From assembly GCF_030013595.1 (NCBI RefSeq), contig NZ_CP122768.1: a stretch of DNA of 64,000 nucleotides; one strand, written 5' to 3'. Shown one piece after another: positions 6,441 through 45,379 of this stretch. Below the pieces are notes generated by a model. The model did no database searches. It was not told the DNA's origin and worked only from the letters and a program-made list of their open reading frames with translations. Position 1 is the stretch's first letter; each line of letters opens with the position of its first letter. The translations under genes were made by a program, and so were the position numbers. Origin of the DNA: Escherichia coli. GTDB taxonomy: Bacteria; Pseudomonadota; Gammaproteobacteria; Enterobacterales; Enterobacteriaceae.

Positions 6441-6596
6441 AGCGTAATGGCGCGCCGTGGGAAGCGCGGACATTAATTAACCAACTGCACTGAGTGTCTT
6501 TCAGGATCAAAGGTTTTCGCGGTAGCGGGATGCGTCGTGTTGATGACGACCATGCCCGACAGTTGCAATTCGTGGCAAAAATGCAGGAATAAAACA

Positions 6597-8837
6597 ATGA
6601 ACAAGAAGATTCATTCCCTGGCCTTGTTGGTCAATCTGGGGATTTATGGGGTAGCACAGGCACAAGAGCCAACCGATACTCCTGTTTCACATGACGATAC
6701 CATTGTCGTTACCGCCGCCGAGCAGAACTTGCAGGCGCCTGGCGTTTCGACCATCACCGCAGATGAAATCCGCAAAAACCCGGTTGCCCGCGATGTGTCG
6801 GAGATCATCCGTACCATGCCAGGCGTTAACCTGATCGGTAACTCCACCAGTGGTCAGCGTGGGAATAACCGACAGATTGATATTCGCGGCATGGGTCCGG
6901 AAAACACGCTGATTTTGATTGACGGCAAGCCGGTAAGCAGCCGTAACTCGGTGCGTCAGGGCTGGCGTGGCGAGCGCGATACCCGTGGTGATACCTCCTG
7001 GGTGCCACCTGAAATGATTGAACGTATTGAAGTTCTGCGTGGTCCGGCGGCTGCGCGTTATGGCAACGGCGCGGCGGGCGGCGTGGTTAACATCATTACC
7101 AAAAAAGGCAGTGGTGAGTGGCACGGCTCCTGGGACGCATATTTCAATGCGCCAGAACATAAAGAGGAAGGTGCCACCAAACGCACTAACTTTAGCCTCA
7201 CCGGTCCGCTGGGCGACGAATTCAGCTTTCGCTTGTATGGCAACCTCGACAAAACTCAGGCTGACGCGTGGGATATCAACCAGGGCCATCAGTCCGCGCG
7301 TGCCGGAACCTATGCCACGACGTTACCAGCCGGGCGCGAAGGGGTGATCAATAAAGATATTAACGGCGTGGTGCGCTGGGACTTCGCACCATTGCAATCG
7401 CTGGAACTGGAAGCGGGTTACAGCCGCCAGGGTAACCTGTATGCGGGCGATACCCAGAACACCAACTCTGACGCTTACACTCGCTCGAAATATGGCGATG
7501 AAACCAACCGTCTGTATCGCCAGAACTACTCGCTGACATGGAACGGCGGCTGGGATAACGGCGTGACCACCAGCAACTGGGTGCAGTACGAACATACCCG
7601 TAACTCGCGTATTCCGGAAGGTCTGGCGGGCGGCACAGAAGGGAAATTTAACGAAAAAGCGACACAGGATTTCGTCGATATCGATCTCGATGACGTGATG
7701 CTGCACAGCGAAGTTAACCTGCCGATTGATTTCCTCGTTAACCAGACGCTGACGCTGGGTACGGAGTGGAATCAGCAGCGGATGAAGGACTTGAGTTCCA
7801 ACACCCAGGCGCTCACCGGGACGAATACCGGCGGCGCTATTGATGGCGTGAGTGCGACAGACCGTAGCCCATATTCAAAAGCAGAAATTTTCTCGCTGTT
7901 TGCCGAAAACAATATGGAGCTGACTGACAGCACCATCGTAACGCCGGGGCTGCGTTTCGATCATCACAGCATTGTTGGCAATAACTGGAGTCCGGCTCTA
8001 AACATATCGCAAGGTTTAGGCGATGACTTCACGCTGAAAATGGGCATTGCCCGTGCTTATAAAGCGCCGAGTCTGTACCAGACTAACCCAAACTACATTC
8101 TCTACAGTAAAGGTCAGGGCTGCTATGCCAGCGCGGGCGGCTGCTATCTGCAAGGTAATGATGACCTGAAAGCGGAAACCAGCATCAACAAAGAGATTGG
8201 TCTGGAGTTCAAACGCGACGGCTGGCTGGCGGGCGTCACCTGGTTCCGTAACGATTATCGCAATAAGATTGAAGCGGGCTATGTGGCTGTAGGGCAAAAC
8301 GCAGTCGGCACCGATCTCTATCAGTGGGATAACGTACCGAAAGCGGTGGTTGAAGGTCTGGAAGGATCGTTAAACGTACCGGTTAGCGAAACGGTGATGT
8401 GGACCAATAACATCACTTATATGCTGAAGAGTGAAAACAAAACCACGGGCGACCGTTTGTCGATCATCCCGGAGTATACGTTGAACTCAACGCTGAGCTG
8501 GCAGGCACGGGAAGATTTGTCGATGCAAACGACCTTCACCTGGTACGGCAAGCAGCAGCCGAAGAAGTACAACTATAAAGGTCAGCCAGCGGTTGGACCG
8601 GAAACCAAAGAAATCAGCCCGTACAGCATTGTTGGCCTGAGCGCGACCTGGGATGTAACGAAGAATGTCAGTCTGACCGGCGGCGTGGACAACCTGTTCG
8701 ACAAACGTTTGTGGCGTGCGGGTAATGCCCAGACCACAGGCGATCTGGCAGGAGCCAACTATATCGCCGGTGCCGGGGCATATACCTATAACGAGCCGGG
8801 ACGTACGTGGTATATGAGCATTAATACTCACTTCTGA
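6597..8837 (+). CDS. fepA: TonB-dependent ferric enterobactin outer-membrane receptor FepA
   Basis: ORF 6537..8837; start taken at MNKKIHSLALLVNLGIYGVAQA (signal peptide), 746 aa; TonB box DTIVVTA, C-terminal aromatic residue (F). Confidence 0.95.
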   Translation: MNKKIHSLALLVNLGIYGVAQAQEPTDTPVSHDDTIVVTAAEQNLQAPGVSTITADEIRKNPVARDVSEIIRTMPGVNLIGNSTSGQRGNNRQIDIRGMGPENTLILIDGKPVSSRNSVRQGWRGERDTRGDTSWVPPEMIERIEVLRGPAAARYGNGAAGGVVNIITKKGSGEWHGSWDAYFNAPEHKEEGATKRTNFSLTGPLGDEFSFRLYGNLDKTQADAWDINQGHQSARAGTYATTLPAGREGVINKDINGVVRWDFAPLQSLELEAGYSRQGNLYAGDTQNTNSDAYTRSKYGDETNRLYRQNYSLTWNGGWDNGVTTSNWVQYEHTRNSRIPEGLAGGTEGKFNEKATQDFVDIDLDDVMLHSEVNLPIDFLVNQTLTLGTEWNQQRMKDLSSNTQALTGTNTGGAIDGVSATDRSPYSKAEIFSLFAENNMELTDSTIVTPGLRFDHHSIVGNNWSPALNISQGLGDDFTLKMGIARAYKAPSLYQTNPNYILYSKGQGCYASAGGCYLQGNDDLKAETSINKEIGLEFKRDGWLAGVTWFRNDYRNKIEAGYVAVGQNAVGTDLYQWDNVPKAVVEGLEGSLNVPVSETVMWTNNITYMLKSENKTTGDRLSIIPEYTLNSTLSWQAREDLSMQTTFTWYGKQQPKKYNYKGQPAVGPETKEISPYSIVGLSATWDVTKNVSLTGGVDNLFDKRLWRAGNAQTTGDLAGANYIAGAGAYTYNEPGRTWYMSINTHF

Positions 8838-8876: not shown

Positions 8877-8974
8877 GCCGGATGCGGCGTGAACGCCTTA
8901 TCCGGCCTACAAAAATCTTGCCAATTCAATATATTGCAGGACCACGTAGGCCTGATAAGCGTAGCGCATCAGGC
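8877..8974. repeat. BIME: two inverted REP elements flanking a short spacer
   Basis: gccggatgcggcgtgaacgccttatccggcctac ... gtaggcctgataagcgtagcgcatcaggc; classic REP consensus in opposite orientations between fepA and entD. Confidence 0.7.
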
Positions 8975-9011: not shown

Positions 9012-9632
9012 ATGAAAACTACGCATACCGCCCTCCCCTTTGCCGGAAATACGCTGCATTTTGTTAAGTTCGATCCGGCGAGTTTTCGCGAGCAGGATTT
9101 ACTCTGGCTGCCACACTACGCACAACTGCAACACGCTGGACGTAAACGTAAAACAGAGCATTTAGCTGGACGAATCGCTGCTGTTTATGCCTTGCGGGAA
9201 TATGGCTATAAATATGTGCCCGCTATCGGCGAGCTACGCCAACCTGTGTGGCCTGCGGAGGTATACGGCAGTATTAGCCACTGCGGGACTACGGCATTAG
9301 CCGTGGTATCTCGTCAACCGATTGGCATTGATATCGAAGAGATTTTCTCTGTACAAACCGCAAGAGAATTGACAGACAACATTATTACACCAGCAGAACA
9401 CGAGCGACTCGCAGAATGCGGTTTAACCTTTTCTCTGGCGCTAACACTGGCATTTTCCGCCAAAGAGAGCGCATTTAAGGCAAGCAAGATACAGGCCGCT
9501 CAAGGTTTTCTGGATTATCAGATAATTAGCTGGAATAAACAGCAGATCATCATTCGACTAGAGGATGAGCAGTTTGCTGTGCACTGGCAGATAAAAGAAA
9601 AAATAGTCATAACGCTGTGCCAACACGATTAA
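9012..9632 (+). CDS. entD: 4'-phosphopantetheinyl transferase EntD
   Basis: MKTTHTALPFAGNTLHFVKFDPASF... (ORF 8862..9632; alternative ATG at 9003). PPTase family features; located directly downstream of fepA. Confidence 0.9.
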   Translation: MKTTHTALPFAGNTLHFVKFDPASFREQDLLWLPHYAQLQHAGRKRKTEHLAGRIAAVYALREYGYKYVPAIGELRQPVWPAEVYGSISHCGTTALAVVSRQPIGIDIEEIFSVQTARELTDNIITPAEHERLAECGLTFSLALTLAFSAKESAFKASKIQAAQGFLDYQIISWNKQQIIIRLEDEQFAVHWQIKEKIVITLCQHD

Positions 9633-9742
9633 TTGACAACATCTGGTACGATTCGCCCGCAGCCATTGCTGACCGCGGGCGAAAGTGTAAAACAGGTGCC
9701 TTACCACCCTGACCTGACAACCGGATATGCGGGGATTACTCC

Positions 9743-11080
9743 CATAAGCGCTAACTTAAGGGTTGTGGTATTACGCCTGATATGATTTAACGTGCCGATG
9801 AATTACTCTCACGATAACTGGTCAGCAATTCTGGCCCATATTGGTAAGCCCGAAGAACTGGATACTTCGGCACGTAATGCCGGGGCTCTAACCCGCCGCC
9901 GCGAAATTCGTGATGCTGCAACTCTGCTACGTCTGGGGCTGGCTTACGGCCCCGGGGGGATGTCATTACGTGAAGTCACTGCATGGGCTCAGCTCCATGA
10001 CGTTGCAACATTATCTGACGTGGCTCTCCTGAAGCGGCTGCGGAATGCCGCCGACTGGTTTGGCATACTTGCCGCACAAACACTTGCTGTACGCGCCGCA
10101 GTTACGGGTTGTACAAGCGGAAAGAGATTGCGTCTTGTCGATGGAACAGCAATCAGTGCGCCCGGGGGCGGCAGCGCTGAATGGCGACTACATATGGGAT
10201 ATGATCCTCATACCTGTCAGTTCACTGATTTTGAGCTAACCGACAGCAGAGACGCTGAACGGCTGGACCGATTTGCGCAAACGGCAGACGAGATACGCAT
10301 TGCTGACCGGGGATTCGGTTCGCGTCCCGAATGTATCCGCTCACTTGCTTTTGGAGAAGCTGATTATATCGTCCGGGTTCACTGGCGAGGATTGCGCTGG
10401 TTAACTGCAGAAGGAATGCGCTTTGACATGATGGGTTTTCTGCGCGGGCTGGATTGCGGTAAGAACGGTGAAACCACTGTAATGATAGGCAATTCAGGTA
10501 ATAAAAAAGCCGGAGCTCCCTTTCCGGCACGTCTCATTGCCGTATCACTTCCTCCCGAAAAAGCATTAATCAGTAAAACCCGACTGCTCAGCGAGAATCG
10601 TCGAAAAGGACGAGTAGTTCAGGCGGAAACGCTGGAAGCAGCGGGCCATGTGCTATTGCTAACATCATTACCGGAAGATGAATATTCAGCAGAGCAAGTG
10701 GCTGATTGTTACCGTCTGCGATGGCAAATTGAACTGGCTTTTAAGCGGCTCAAAAGTTTGCTGCACCTGGATGCTTTGCGTGCAAAGGAACCTGAACTCG
10801 CGAAAGCGTGGATATTTGCTAATCTACTCGCCGCATTTTTAATTGACGACATAATCCAGCCATCGCTGGATTTCCCCCCAGAAGTGCCGGATCCGAAAAG
10901 AAGAACTAACTCGTTGTGGAGAATAACAAAAATGGTCATCTGGAGCTTACAGGTGGCCATTCGTGGGACAGTATCCCTGACAGCCTACAAAACGCAATTG
11001 AAGAACGCGAGGCATCGTCTTAACGAGGCACCGAGGCGTCGCATTCTTCAGATGGTTCAACCCTTAAGTTAGCGCTTATG
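9743..11080 (+). mobile_element. IS186 (IS4 family) insertion sequence, 1338 bp
   Basis: Terminal inverted repeats cataagcgctaacttaagggttg (9743-9765) and caacccttaagttagcgcttatg (11058-11080); flanked by direct repeat ggattactcc (9733-9742 and 11081-11090) inside a GGGG..CCCC context. Confidence 0.9.
9960..11072 (+). CDS. insL: IS186 transposase (DDE, IS4 family)
   Basis: ORF 9792..11072 (426 aa); start placed at MSLREVTAWAQ to give the 370-aa InsL form; start is uncertain. Confidence 0.8.
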   Translation: MSLREVTAWAQLHDVATLSDVALLKRLRNAADWFGILAAQTLAVRAAVTGCTSGKRLRLVDGTAISAPGGGSAEWRLHMGYDPHTCQFTDFELTDSRDAERLDRFAQTADEIRIADRGFGSRPECIRSLAFGEADYIVRVHWRGLRWLTAEGMRFDMMGFLRGLDCGKNGETTVMIGNSGNKKAGAPFPARLIAVSLPPEKALISKTRLLSENRRKGRVVQAETLEAAGHVLLLTSLPEDEYSAEQVADCYRLRWQIELAFKRLKSLLHLDALRAKEPELAKAWIFANLLAAFLIDDIIQPSLDFPPEVPDPKRRTNSLWRITKMVIWSLQVAIRGTVSLTAYKTQLKNARHRLNEAPRRRILQMVQPLS

Positions 11081-11101
11081 GGATTACTCCCCGCACAACG
11101 G

Positions 11102-11254
11102 CTACTTCTTCGGTTCGTAAGCGAGAACAGCCTTAAACTCAATATTACGTTCCTTCACCGTAAACTCACACAGCGAGTCTCCGACCAGAAGCGTAAATCC
11201 CAGTACCGTCAAACACAGCACTATGACTGCCACAAGGGCATATTTCGTCAGCAT
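11102..11254 (-). CDS. hokE: Hok-family small membrane toxin (type I toxin-antitoxin)
   Basis: 50-aa product [50 protein letters not shown] embedded in a longer leader ORF (mok-like, 11102..11398). IS186 lies 21 bp downstream. Confidence 0.85.
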
Positions 11255-11680
11255 GTTTATATTGCCTCCATGCGAAGAAGGGACTACCATCCAAATTGTC
11301 TGGTTTGGAGTGGCAGCCCCAGGGTTGATAGAAATATCTCCTGGGGCTTCATCTTTCCAGACCTCAGAGTAAACCTGAAACCGGAAAGCTTCAGGCACCC
11401 GCCGTTATCTTACCCTTCCTCAGCAAAATAGCTGTTTATTTATACAGTGAGTCCTGTTTCGGACTTCTCACTCCTCATTTGATCAACTGAAGCTGAACCC
11501 GTTTTTTTCTGCATGCCTCAATCGTCAAAATTCTTCGCCACCAGCCAGCTCTGCCATAACTTGTCACATTGCAGAAGTAGCCAAACTTCTTCAGTCACAA
11601 TCAGTTCACCATCACCAAAAAAAGAAACATTCCAGAACTTCCGCATCTCGCCCAGTCGCTCCCACTTCTATACTGAATAG

Positions 11681-12823
<1,143 letters not shown>

Positions 12824-37221: not shown

Positions 37222-37806
37222 TTACTCCCTGACAGGGTTCGTAGGCCACTCAATATCAGGTGCAGTTGATGTATCAACACGGTTCAGCAACACCCGATAC
37301 TTTTTCCAGGCTTCCAGCAACGAGGTTTCTCCCTCCGTTGCGATTTCCAGATCTGCAGCATCCTGAAGTGGCGCAATATGCTCACTGGCTACCTGCATCA
37401 GGCTGTTTTTTGTTTCTTCCGCCTCCCGGATCCGGAACAGTTTTTCTGCTTCTGCATCTTTCACCCAGGTTGTGCCGTTCCACTTCTGAAACTCCCCTTC
37501 CGGGGATAACCAGGTGACATTTTCCGGTAATGAGCCGAGTTCAGAAATAAATAACGCGTCGCCGGAAGCCACGTCATAGACGGTTTTACCCCGATGGTCT
37601 TCAACGAGATGCCACGATGCCTCATCACTGTTGAAAACAGCCACAAAGCCAGCCGGAATATCTGGCGGTGCAATATCGGTACTGTTTGCTGGCAGACCTG
37701 TATGAGGCGGAATATATGCGTCACCTTCACCAATAAATTCATTAGTTCCGGCCAGCAGATTATAAATTTTTATGGTCCGTGGTTGTTCACTCATTCTGAA
37801 TGCCAT
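37222..37806 (-). CDS. tfa: Tail fibre assembly protein (lambda Tfa-like)
   Basis: 194-aa [42 protein letters not shown]... with C-terminal conserved block; start overlaps stf stop. Confidence 0.9.
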
Positions 37807-44800: not shown

Positions 44801-45379
44801 CAGCTGGTCTGTGGTGCTGTCCGGCGTCATCCTGCGCATCCGGATACTGAACGGGCGCGGCGGCAGGTTATCCACCACCACCGAGGCCAGATACTGCGAG
44901 GTGGTTTTGCCCTTAATGGTGATGTCTTTTTCCGTCACCCAGCCACCGTTACGTTGTATCTGAACCAGCAGGCGGACTTCCGATGGATTCCTGTCACCCT
45001 TTGAGGTGGTTTCCACCAGTGCCTGCACACCGAAGGTAAAGCGCAGTCGGTCGATGTTTGCCGACGTGATGGCGCGGGTGATCGGCGTGTCGTATTTCAC
45101 TTCCGTACCCAGCACCGTCTCGGAGCCGGAGGATTCAAATCCCTCCGGCGGAGTCTGCTCCTGCTCACCAGCCCGGAACACCACCGTGACACCGGCGATG
45201 TTGGTATTCCCCTCACTGTCCAGCACCGGCGTACTGTTCAGCAGCACGCTTTTTAATCCATCCACCGGACCTTCAATCGGCCCTTCACTGATGGCATCAA
45301 TCACACTCAGCAACTGCGTGGATTTCAGGTTGTCCTTCGCTTCGCGCGGGGTATGCCCCTTACTGCTGCCTTTACCCAT
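41900..45379 (-). CDS. J: Tail tip / host-specificity protein J (central tail fibre)
   Basis: 1159-aa [50 protein letters not shown]... Confidence 0.95.

Follow-up and report, generated by a model that had tools for sequence, protein, structure and literature searches.

We analysed a 64,000-nucleotide stretch of the Escherichia coli contig NZ_CP122768.1 (assembly GCF_030013595.1; hereafter, the window), in which a copy of the insertion sequence IS186 lies just downstream of the toxin gene hokE. The element occupies positions 9743-11080 and is read on the plus strand, with its transposase gene on that strand and convergent with hokE; its orientation was assigned by BLAST against the K-12 locus. 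Both ends carry perfect terminal inverted repeats of 23 bp that start with CAT. The left repeat, CATAAGCGCTAACTTAAGGGTTG (9743-9765, plus strand), was found by direct reading and by a repeat finder alike, and the right repeat (11058-11080, plus strand) is its exact reverse complement. An earlier note, made from the letters of the sequence, had described 1338 bp between perfect terminal inverted repeats; the length and the perfection of the repeats were borne out, but the 1338 bp include the repeats. The same note had named the element IS186, and correctly so, since there is only 1 difference in 1339 positions from both K-12 IS186A and K-12 IS186B. With the same boundaries applied, the length is 1339 bp for IS186A, IS186B and the CH4796 copy, and the window copy is without one C of a run of seven (C7).

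IS186 is flanked by a perfect target-site duplication of 10 bp, GGATTACTCC, with a left copy at 9733-9742 and a right copy at 11081-11090. The two copies are identical, in line with the direct repeat in a GGGG..CCCC context described earlier, and the chance of a perfect 10-bp repeat abutting both element ends is about 4^-10. The target context has the form G4-N6-C4, the corresponding empty site being GGGGATTACTCCCC. The repeat finder returned a longer identical stretch of 12 nt, GGGATTACTCCC, at 9732-9743 and 11080-11091 with a spacing of 1348, because the terminal C and G of IS186 carry the repeat on. Taken from the canonical ends of the element, the duplication measures 10 bp, and up to 12 bp is possible. 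Between the end of IS186 and the hokE stop codon are 21 bp (11081-11101), as had been stated. Furthermore, the rejoined flanks read cGGGGATTACTCCCCg, which is exactly the empty site of strain HCP5S3_I2, and the comparison with a strain lacking the insertion thus agrees with the proposed junctions to the base.

The hokE gene (11102-11254, minus strand) encodes an intact toxin of 50 amino acids, which matched the Pfam model HOK_GEF with 34 bits (cut-off 22) and the NCBIfam Hok models below their cut-offs. It is identical to K-12 HokE at 49 of 50 residues, with V8 in the window and A8 in K-12. From the list of open reading frames and direct reading, a candidate mokE reading frame (11102-11290, minus strand) would extend hokE in frame at its N-terminus from an ATG at 11290; the model for this was K-12 mokC and hokC, which have a common frame and stop codon. 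The leader of the hokE mRNA, with tac, the Sok target and the mok start region, was assigned to 11246-11400 (minus strand), where the full Rfam model RF01794 matched with 83.7 bits (gathering score 59). This model is named 'sok antitoxin', and it matches the sense strand of the hokE leader through the hokE start codon, not the antisense Sok RNA; such a match therefore marks a hok leader. An antisense sok gene, for which the earlier note had pointed to the region upstream of the mok leader, was found at 11297-11356 (plus strand), where 57 of 60 positions equal the annotated K-12 sokE. A sub-threshold sokE promoter, TTGCCT-17-TACCAT, could be read by eye at 11262-11290 (8 of 12 matches), and a consensus scan of 9500-11750 returned no promoter-like site and no independent support for hokE or sokE promoters. 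These matches mark the locus as a hokE/sokE type I toxin-antitoxin system, whose toxin gene, leader and sokE are apparently intact. In RefSeq, a 'frameshifted hypothetical protein' pseudogene is annotated opposite the hokE leader in two records (L002, 4626-4893; L003, 10426-10693), which corresponds to about 11223-11490 of the window on the plus strand. Since sokE falls within the annotated span, the supposed pseudogene is probably an artefact of annotating non-coding RNA sequence.

The same site is occupied in K-12. In MG1655, IS186B (b4415/b0582 annotation) occupies the very base pair of the window insertion and is flanked by an identical 10-bp duplication. It is inverted relative to the window copy, so that transposase and hokE are co-directional in K-12 and convergent in the window. 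Both loci have the hokE and sokE genes, and the elements are identical but for one base; on the other hand, the flanks differ by 3-3.5% and the K-12 copy has a C7 run rather than a run of six (C6). Flank identity to the window was 96.5-97.1% for K-12 MG1655 and 98.4% for CH4796, which carries IS186 in the same orientation as the window. HCP5S3_I2, a strain from pig faeces in the UK, had the empty site GCGGGGATTACTCCCCGC and a flank identity of 99.96-99.98% over about 20 kb; its two flank alignments overlap by exactly the 12 repeated bases. No complete genome that bears IS186 at this site shared the flanking haplotype of the window, all being at most 99.5% identical over a junction query of 1851 nt, and the differences fell almost wholly in the 513 nt of flank in that query. 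The opposite orientation and the near-identical empty-site strain together argue that this is not the K-12 event. The simplest reading of these alignments is that the window insertion is recent, private to its lineage and separate from the K-12 insertion at the same base pair.

To place the insertion point within the hokE RNA, we reconstructed the uninterrupted transcript from the near-identical empty-site allele of HCP5S3_I2 and folded it. The predicted fold had a free energy of -179.5 kcal/mol (z = -7.7 against shuffled sequences). A predicted hairpin of 10 bp, UGUGCGGGGA-GUAA-UCCCCGCAUA, begins 7 nt past the hokE stop codon, and the insertion point of IS186 is at its apex. The body of hokE retains the 5' arm and the loop of the former hairpin, which are held by the right copy of the duplication together with 11091-11097, and the 3' arm is held by the left copy. 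In both the minimum-free-energy and the centroid folds, nucleotides 1-8 of the hokE mRNA, GGGUGCCU, are predicted to pair with AGGCACCU, about 45-50 nt beyond the insertion point. This latter stretch (9694-9701, minus strand) is a predicted fold-back inhibition (fbi) element that would pair with the tac 5' end of the mRNA and is now parted from hokE by IS186. Such end-pairing of tac and fbi is the architecture of the hok mRNA of plasmid R1. Further downstream, a terminal hairpin of the pre-insertion transcript (9652-9683, minus strand; inverted repeat I2) had a 14-bp stem in the empty-site folds and is now 1.35 kb from hokE; located between entD and hokE, it is probably a shared terminator. 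The insertion has put 1348 bp between the hokE body and both of these elements, fbi and terminal hairpin, and when the RNA was cut at the IS junction, its 5' end was predicted to fold locally instead. The suggestion of the earlier note that the insertion could alter the 3' end of the hokE mRNA gains support from this model, in which the insertion point falls inside the reconstructed transcript and not beyond its end.

A similar arrangement was predicted at the paralogous K-12 locus hokC (gef), elsewhere on the chromosome by dnaJ and nhaA, where IS186A is inserted. The post-stop hairpins are homologous (GGGGAGUGAUCCCC in hokC and GGGGAGUAAUCCCC in hokE), the duplication is again 10 bp, the element has the same convergent orientation as in the window, and fbi would likewise be displaced. 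In an IS-free reconstruction of hokC, the 5' end, GGGUGCUUGAGG, is predicted to pair beyond the insertion point, with base changes that compensate relative to hokE. The predictions agree with PMC3562002, where the IS186 copy behind gef/hokC is presumed, at second hand, to disrupt fbi and the gef mRNA to end within the element. In the window, the sole terminator-like site on the hokE strand within IS186, from a terminator scan of 9500-11750, is at 10528-10509, about 575 nt past the stop codon. This disagrees with the end of the gef mRNA, which is reported second-hand at about 200 nt.

The frequency of the insertion was estimated with three constructed queries, representing the empty site, the window orientation and the K-12 orientation, which were searched against 5426 complete E. 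coli genomes and counted at 80% or more contiguous coverage. The empty site was found in 2896 genomes, IS186 in the window orientation in 839 and IS186 in the K-12 orientation in 1756, these classes overlapping in part. IS186 thus occupies this base pair in about 48% of complete E. coli genomes. The target consensus of IS186 is (G)>=4 N3-6 (C)>=4. Only one other G4-N3-6-C4 match was present in the window, GGGGTATGCCCC at 45348-45359, which is unoccupied; about 3.2 would be expected by chance. The hokE post-stop hairpin is a recurrent IS186 hot spot for either orientation, and this is already known. A comparable hot spot is the lon promoter, where IS186 enters a single site in either orientation (PMC3045373); the two share repeated de novo insertion at one position, either orientation and a target made of a G-run and a C-run (PMC3045373, PMC3861542). 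They differ in that insertion at lon is selected via loss of Lon, whereas no selected phenotype is known at hokE. In two records (NZ_CP156706.1 and NZ_CM129851.1), two copies each of IS186 and hokE stand in tandem at this locus, and a duplicated hokE is described for strain NRG857c (PMC7232551).

Based on these observations, we propose the following course of events. IS186, a cut-and-paste element of the IS4 family, would have entered the apex of the GC-rich post-stop hairpin, which has the G4-N6-C4 shape favoured by the element, and staggered cuts would have duplicated the 10 bp GGATTACTCC. The hokE transcript would now enter IS186 from its right end and be antisense there to the transposase gene. 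Without fbi, the mRNA may be unable to adopt the closed form with paired 5' and 3' ends that serves hok-family mRNAs as an inert and stable reservoir, and the locus would be expected to be disabled for killing of the post-segregational type, as described for K-12 hokE and hokC. Inactivation of the K-12 hok loci by IS elements is reported, citing Pedersen & Gerdes 1999, in PMC7232551 and PMC3562002. This agrees with the earlier note as far as laboratory strains are concerned, but the insertion is no peculiarity of such strains given its frequency among complete genomes. The likeness of the locus to hok/sok of plasmid R1 extends to the Hok/Gef toxin, the Rfam-matching leader, the antisense sok, the overlapping mok-like frame, the predicted pairing of the 5' and 3' ends and the hairpin past the stop codon. 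It differs from the R1 system in being chromosomal and in having its 3' module displaced by IS186. As a whole, we consider it highly probable that an independent and recent IS186 insertion in the hokE hairpin has parted the fbi element and the terminal hairpin from hokE.

Several points weigh against this explanation or some part of it, and other explanations share part of the evidence. K-12 shares the occupied base pair and the 10-bp duplication, and the inverted repeats together with the near-palindromic target form arms of 38 nt that are 95% complementary; in-situ inversion across these 23-38-bp inverted ends (inverted repeat I1) could in principle yield both orientations. Precise excision of IS186 is also reported at another site (PMC3861542), so the empty site of the sister strain could in principle be secondary. 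A single ancestral event, shared with K-12 by inheritance or recombination and later inverted in place, nevertheless appears improbable. Flank identity is no more than 96.5-97.1% with K-12 and 98.4% with the strain of the same orientation, as against 99.97% with the empty-site strain, and IS186 is documented to insert de novo at one site in both orientations (PMC3045373). Misplacement of IS186 during assembly, for example by a collapsed repeat, has nothing specific in its favour beyond the fact that IS copies commonly cause misassembly, and its probability is very small: both junctions are exact and carry a perfect target duplication, the rejoined flanks equal a natural empty site to the base, and the same structure occurs in 839 other genomes. 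Misassembly and identity by descent with K-12 were both rejected on the exact junctions, the natural empty site and the flank haplotype. With regard to the census, its classes total 5491, which exceeds the 5426 genomes, some of them counted twice and some with duplicated hokE loci; genomes with duplicated hokE units probably account for the excess.

The functional part of the explanation is open to a more substantial objection. The RNA structure of hokE is predicted rather than mapped, and the covariation comes from two paralogues only. Moreover, according to a secondary source, IS-free chromosomal hokA, hokB and hokC are reported without post-segregational killing (bioRxiv 10.1101/2025.08.07.668861), and IS186 may therefore remove little function. 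The insertion would then be functionally neutral in a chromosomal hok locus that was already inert, and its frequency would reflect only the preference of IS186 for the hairpin. We regard neutrality as a serious though less likely alternative. It is consistent with the textbook G4-N6-C4 target and with the scarcity of such targets in the window, one other site being present where 3.2 are expected. However, the HokE peptide is toxic on expression (bioRxiv 10.1101/2025.08.07.668861), the hokE reading frame, leader and sokE are intact in IS-bearing and IS-free genomes alike, and the tac-fbi complementarity is kept in two paralogues, which suggests that the full-length RNA matters where IS186 is absent.

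The presence of IS186 beside hokE and an effect on the 3' end of the mRNA are already known from the K-12 annotation and literature, in which the effect was proposed decades ago. What is added here is modest: the hit is independent and in the other orientation, its frequency in the population is given, and the target is recognised as the post-stop hairpin of the hok mRNA. The near-isogenic empty-site strain provides a natural control for the window insertion. In addition, surveys of toxin-antitoxin systems often read an annotated hokE coding sequence as an intact system, though the 3' regulatory module is displaced here.

The missing C of the window copy falls within its transposase gene. The open reading frame (9798-11072, plus strand) encodes 424 amino acids, with the DDE/YREK core and a C-terminal extension in one frame, and ends 8 bp before the element end. 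The translation matched Pfam DDE_Tnp_1 with 93 bits (cut-off 23) and NCBIfam transpos_IS4_1 with 132.7 bits (cut-off 115), and contains the Y-2-R-3-E-6-K signature YRLRWQIELAFKRLK, of which 13 of 15 columns are almost invariant in the alignment. K-12 InsL, by contrast, has 370 amino acids and ends ...LDFPPRSAGSEKKN, whereas the window reading frame goes on ...LDFPPEVPDPKRRTNSLWRITKMVIWSLQVAIRG...NEAPRRRILQMVQPLS and is 54 amino acids longer. The two part at a candidate recoding site (10872-10883, plus strand), where the window reads TTC CCC CCA GAA, with the C6 run at 10874-10879, and K-12 reads TTC CCC CCC AGA, with the remainder in the +1 frame. The single unshifted reading frame of the IS4 family is thus found in the window copy, whereas C7 copies split the protein between frame 0 and frame +1. 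Public data contain the exact 424-residue protein on 130 contigs, some of them from assemblies built straight from deposited reads. C7 is the commoner allele, with about 2564 records best matching C7 and 146 matching C6, a rough ratio only, as it came from a 60-nt query and 2163 genomes, which is fewer than carry IS186 at hokE. The listed C6 records looked no different from the overall median in IS186 copy number per genome. RefSeq, through the Prokaryotic Genome Annotation Pipeline (PGAP), labels C6 copies, the ones with the long protein in a single frame, as 'frameshifted' pseudogenes, for example at 558-1667 of a record from an O104:H4 plasmid (L088, FDAARGOS_349) and at 557-1667 of one from strain 14EC017 (L089).

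The AlphaFold model of the 424-residue transposase had a mean predicted local distance difference test (pLDDT) score of 85; the solved structure that it matched best was the Tn5 transposase 1MUH (E = 3e-9). In this model the extension forms two helices, 373-389 and 394-408, with a moderate pLDDT of 60-83. An assignment of the extension to the dimerisation helix of Tn5 was considered and set aside as unsupported, given the moderate pLDDT and a Foldseek table without aligned Tn5 residues. By analogy with Tn5, the extension may act in multimerisation, though this is only a guess.

Distant relatives offer a further view of the extension. It aligns with the C-termini of IS4-family transposases of 425-442 amino acids (41-43% identity, 96-98% coverage), with the motifs SLWR, VAIxG and EPPRRR in common. 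Relatives from Alphaproteobacteria (61-71% identity), annotated with 364-368 amino acids, stop at this Pro-Pro site or a few codons away from it, and in their DNA a homologous extension goes on in the +1 frame, as in Labrenzia (TCT CCC CCC TGA G..) and Amaricoccus (GGC CCC TGA A..). A scan for relatives in one genome per species gave 79 loci, which were searched with a profile of the extension in all three forward frames. The extension was found in 56 loci, in the +1 frame relative to the catalytic core in 44, in frame in 12 and in the -1 frame in 0. Clustering at 60% identity gave 25 clusters, of which 19 were purely +1, 3 purely in-frame and 3 mixed. The +1 extension reaches relatives down to about 32% identity. 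Among the hosts of the loci are Alphaproteobacteria, Bacillota, Verrucomicrobiota, Planctomycetota and Armatimonadota. Counted by codon position, the extension showed 391, 320 and 514 nucleotide differences at positions 1, 2 and 3, respectively, which is a coding pattern.

The junction itself is also conserved. A pyrimidine run ending in CCC was found in 43 of the 44 +1 loci, the junction of L073 being degenerate (CCC CTC TGA), and the run is followed by U, except that L009, of the IS186 type, has A. The junction is CCC CCC AGA (CCC_AGA) both in IS186 and in the E. albertii copy. The next zero-frame codon of the +1 loci was UGA in 13 (in a further 3, CCC_UGA comes four codons later), UGG in 11, UCN in 8, UGY in 4 and UAY in 4. 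Where the extension is in frame, the Pro codons are of a non-slippery kind (CCT CCT, CCT CCG and similar). Several diverged and partly degraded IS186-like copies were observed in Candidatus Erwinia dacicola (L012, L013, L015 and L073; 74-83% identity), with junctions that vary among TCC CCC TGA, CCC CTC TGA and a C7 variant that is in frame. The picture resembles that of an element family in decay within the reduced genome of this insect symbiont.

Taken together, these data raise the prospect of recoding, which we put forward tentatively and with slightly less than even confidence. IS186 and a broad IS4-family clade of several phyla would make a transposase of about 424 amino acids through a programmed +1 frameshift at a Pro-Pro site, CCC-CCC-U, often CCC_UGA; the 370-residue InsL would be the unshifted product, without the two-helix C-terminal module, and the C6 copy would be naturally fused and able to do without a shift. 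A +1 slip of the peptidyl-tRNA-Pro from CCC to CCU (CCA in IS186) would give the protein that the C6 copy of the window encodes. AGA is a rare Arg codon in E. coli. Transcriptional slippage that loses one C would yield the same protein; the C runs of only 3-4 in some loci and the conserved U that follows lead us to favour a ribosomal mechanism. CCC_UGA is an established +1 shift-prone site (review PMC5009743). The proposed sites resemble known +1 sites (prfB CUU_UGA, pheL CCC_UGA and Listeria phage tsh; PMC5009743) in having a P-site Pro codon CCC followed by U, often with UGA as the next codon. As with known +1 recoding, natural fused alleles exist, and the proposed shifted product in IS186 is the full-length transposase. 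Transposases made by frameshifting are also known from IS1 and IS3. On the other hand, known IS frameshifts are mostly -1 on A-rich sites and join the DNA-binding to the catalytic part, whereas in IS186 the DDE core is complete in frame 0 and the shift would add only a two-helix C-terminal tail. In a review of the IS4 family, the lack of a frameshift is a defining trait (PMC2266710). We found no description of recoding in IS186 in the searchable literature, in large recoding surveys or in the recoding review PMC5009743, subscription journals and ISfinder notes lying outside the search; the DDE_Tnp_1 clusters of GeneTack are A/T-rich and probably represent other elements.

The same split could arise if C6 were a homopolymer sequencing error, with the 370-residue InsL complete and the downstream +1 frame a relic. 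C7 is indeed the common allele (about 2564 records against 146), a resequenced MG1655 has one C6 copy (H72), PGAP labels C6 copies as frameshifted, and the C7 copies of K-12 transpose readily (PMC3045373, PMC3861542). We nonetheless find this explanation unlikely as a whole, and its relic part poorly supported, though the C6 run of the window itself may be genuine or an error. Of the 56 relatives with the extension, 44 have it in the +1 frame and none in the -1 frame, and a conserved CCC-CCC/UCC-CCC-U motif precedes it; its substitutions follow the coding pattern given above, it aligns with in-frame C-termini of relatives of 425-442 amino acids, and the exact 424-residue protein recurs on 130 contigs. 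If the proposed frameshift is real, the fused C6 copy might have a raised activity, and its recent insertion at hokE would agree with this. Recoding would further mean that a classical K-12 element and a clade of a 'no frameshift' family use +1 recoding, that the limit on IS186 transposition has to be rethought in terms of tRNA-Pro, elongation factor P (EF-P), the rare-codon tRNA or the release factor, and that hundreds of database entries are mis-annotated as truncated proteins or pseudogenes.

With respect to its surroundings, the gene order in the window is entF, fes, fepA (6537-8837), entD (ending at 9632), IS186, hokE (minus strand), ybdK (11705-12823) and the cus genes, which is the enterobactin neighbourhood of E. 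coli. Two gathering-level Rfam matches to candidate small RNA families were also recorded. One, to ES036 (42.2 bits), lies between fepA and entD at 8912-8953 on the plus strand, and the other, to IS009 (225.7 bits), is at 37265-37463 on the minus strand.

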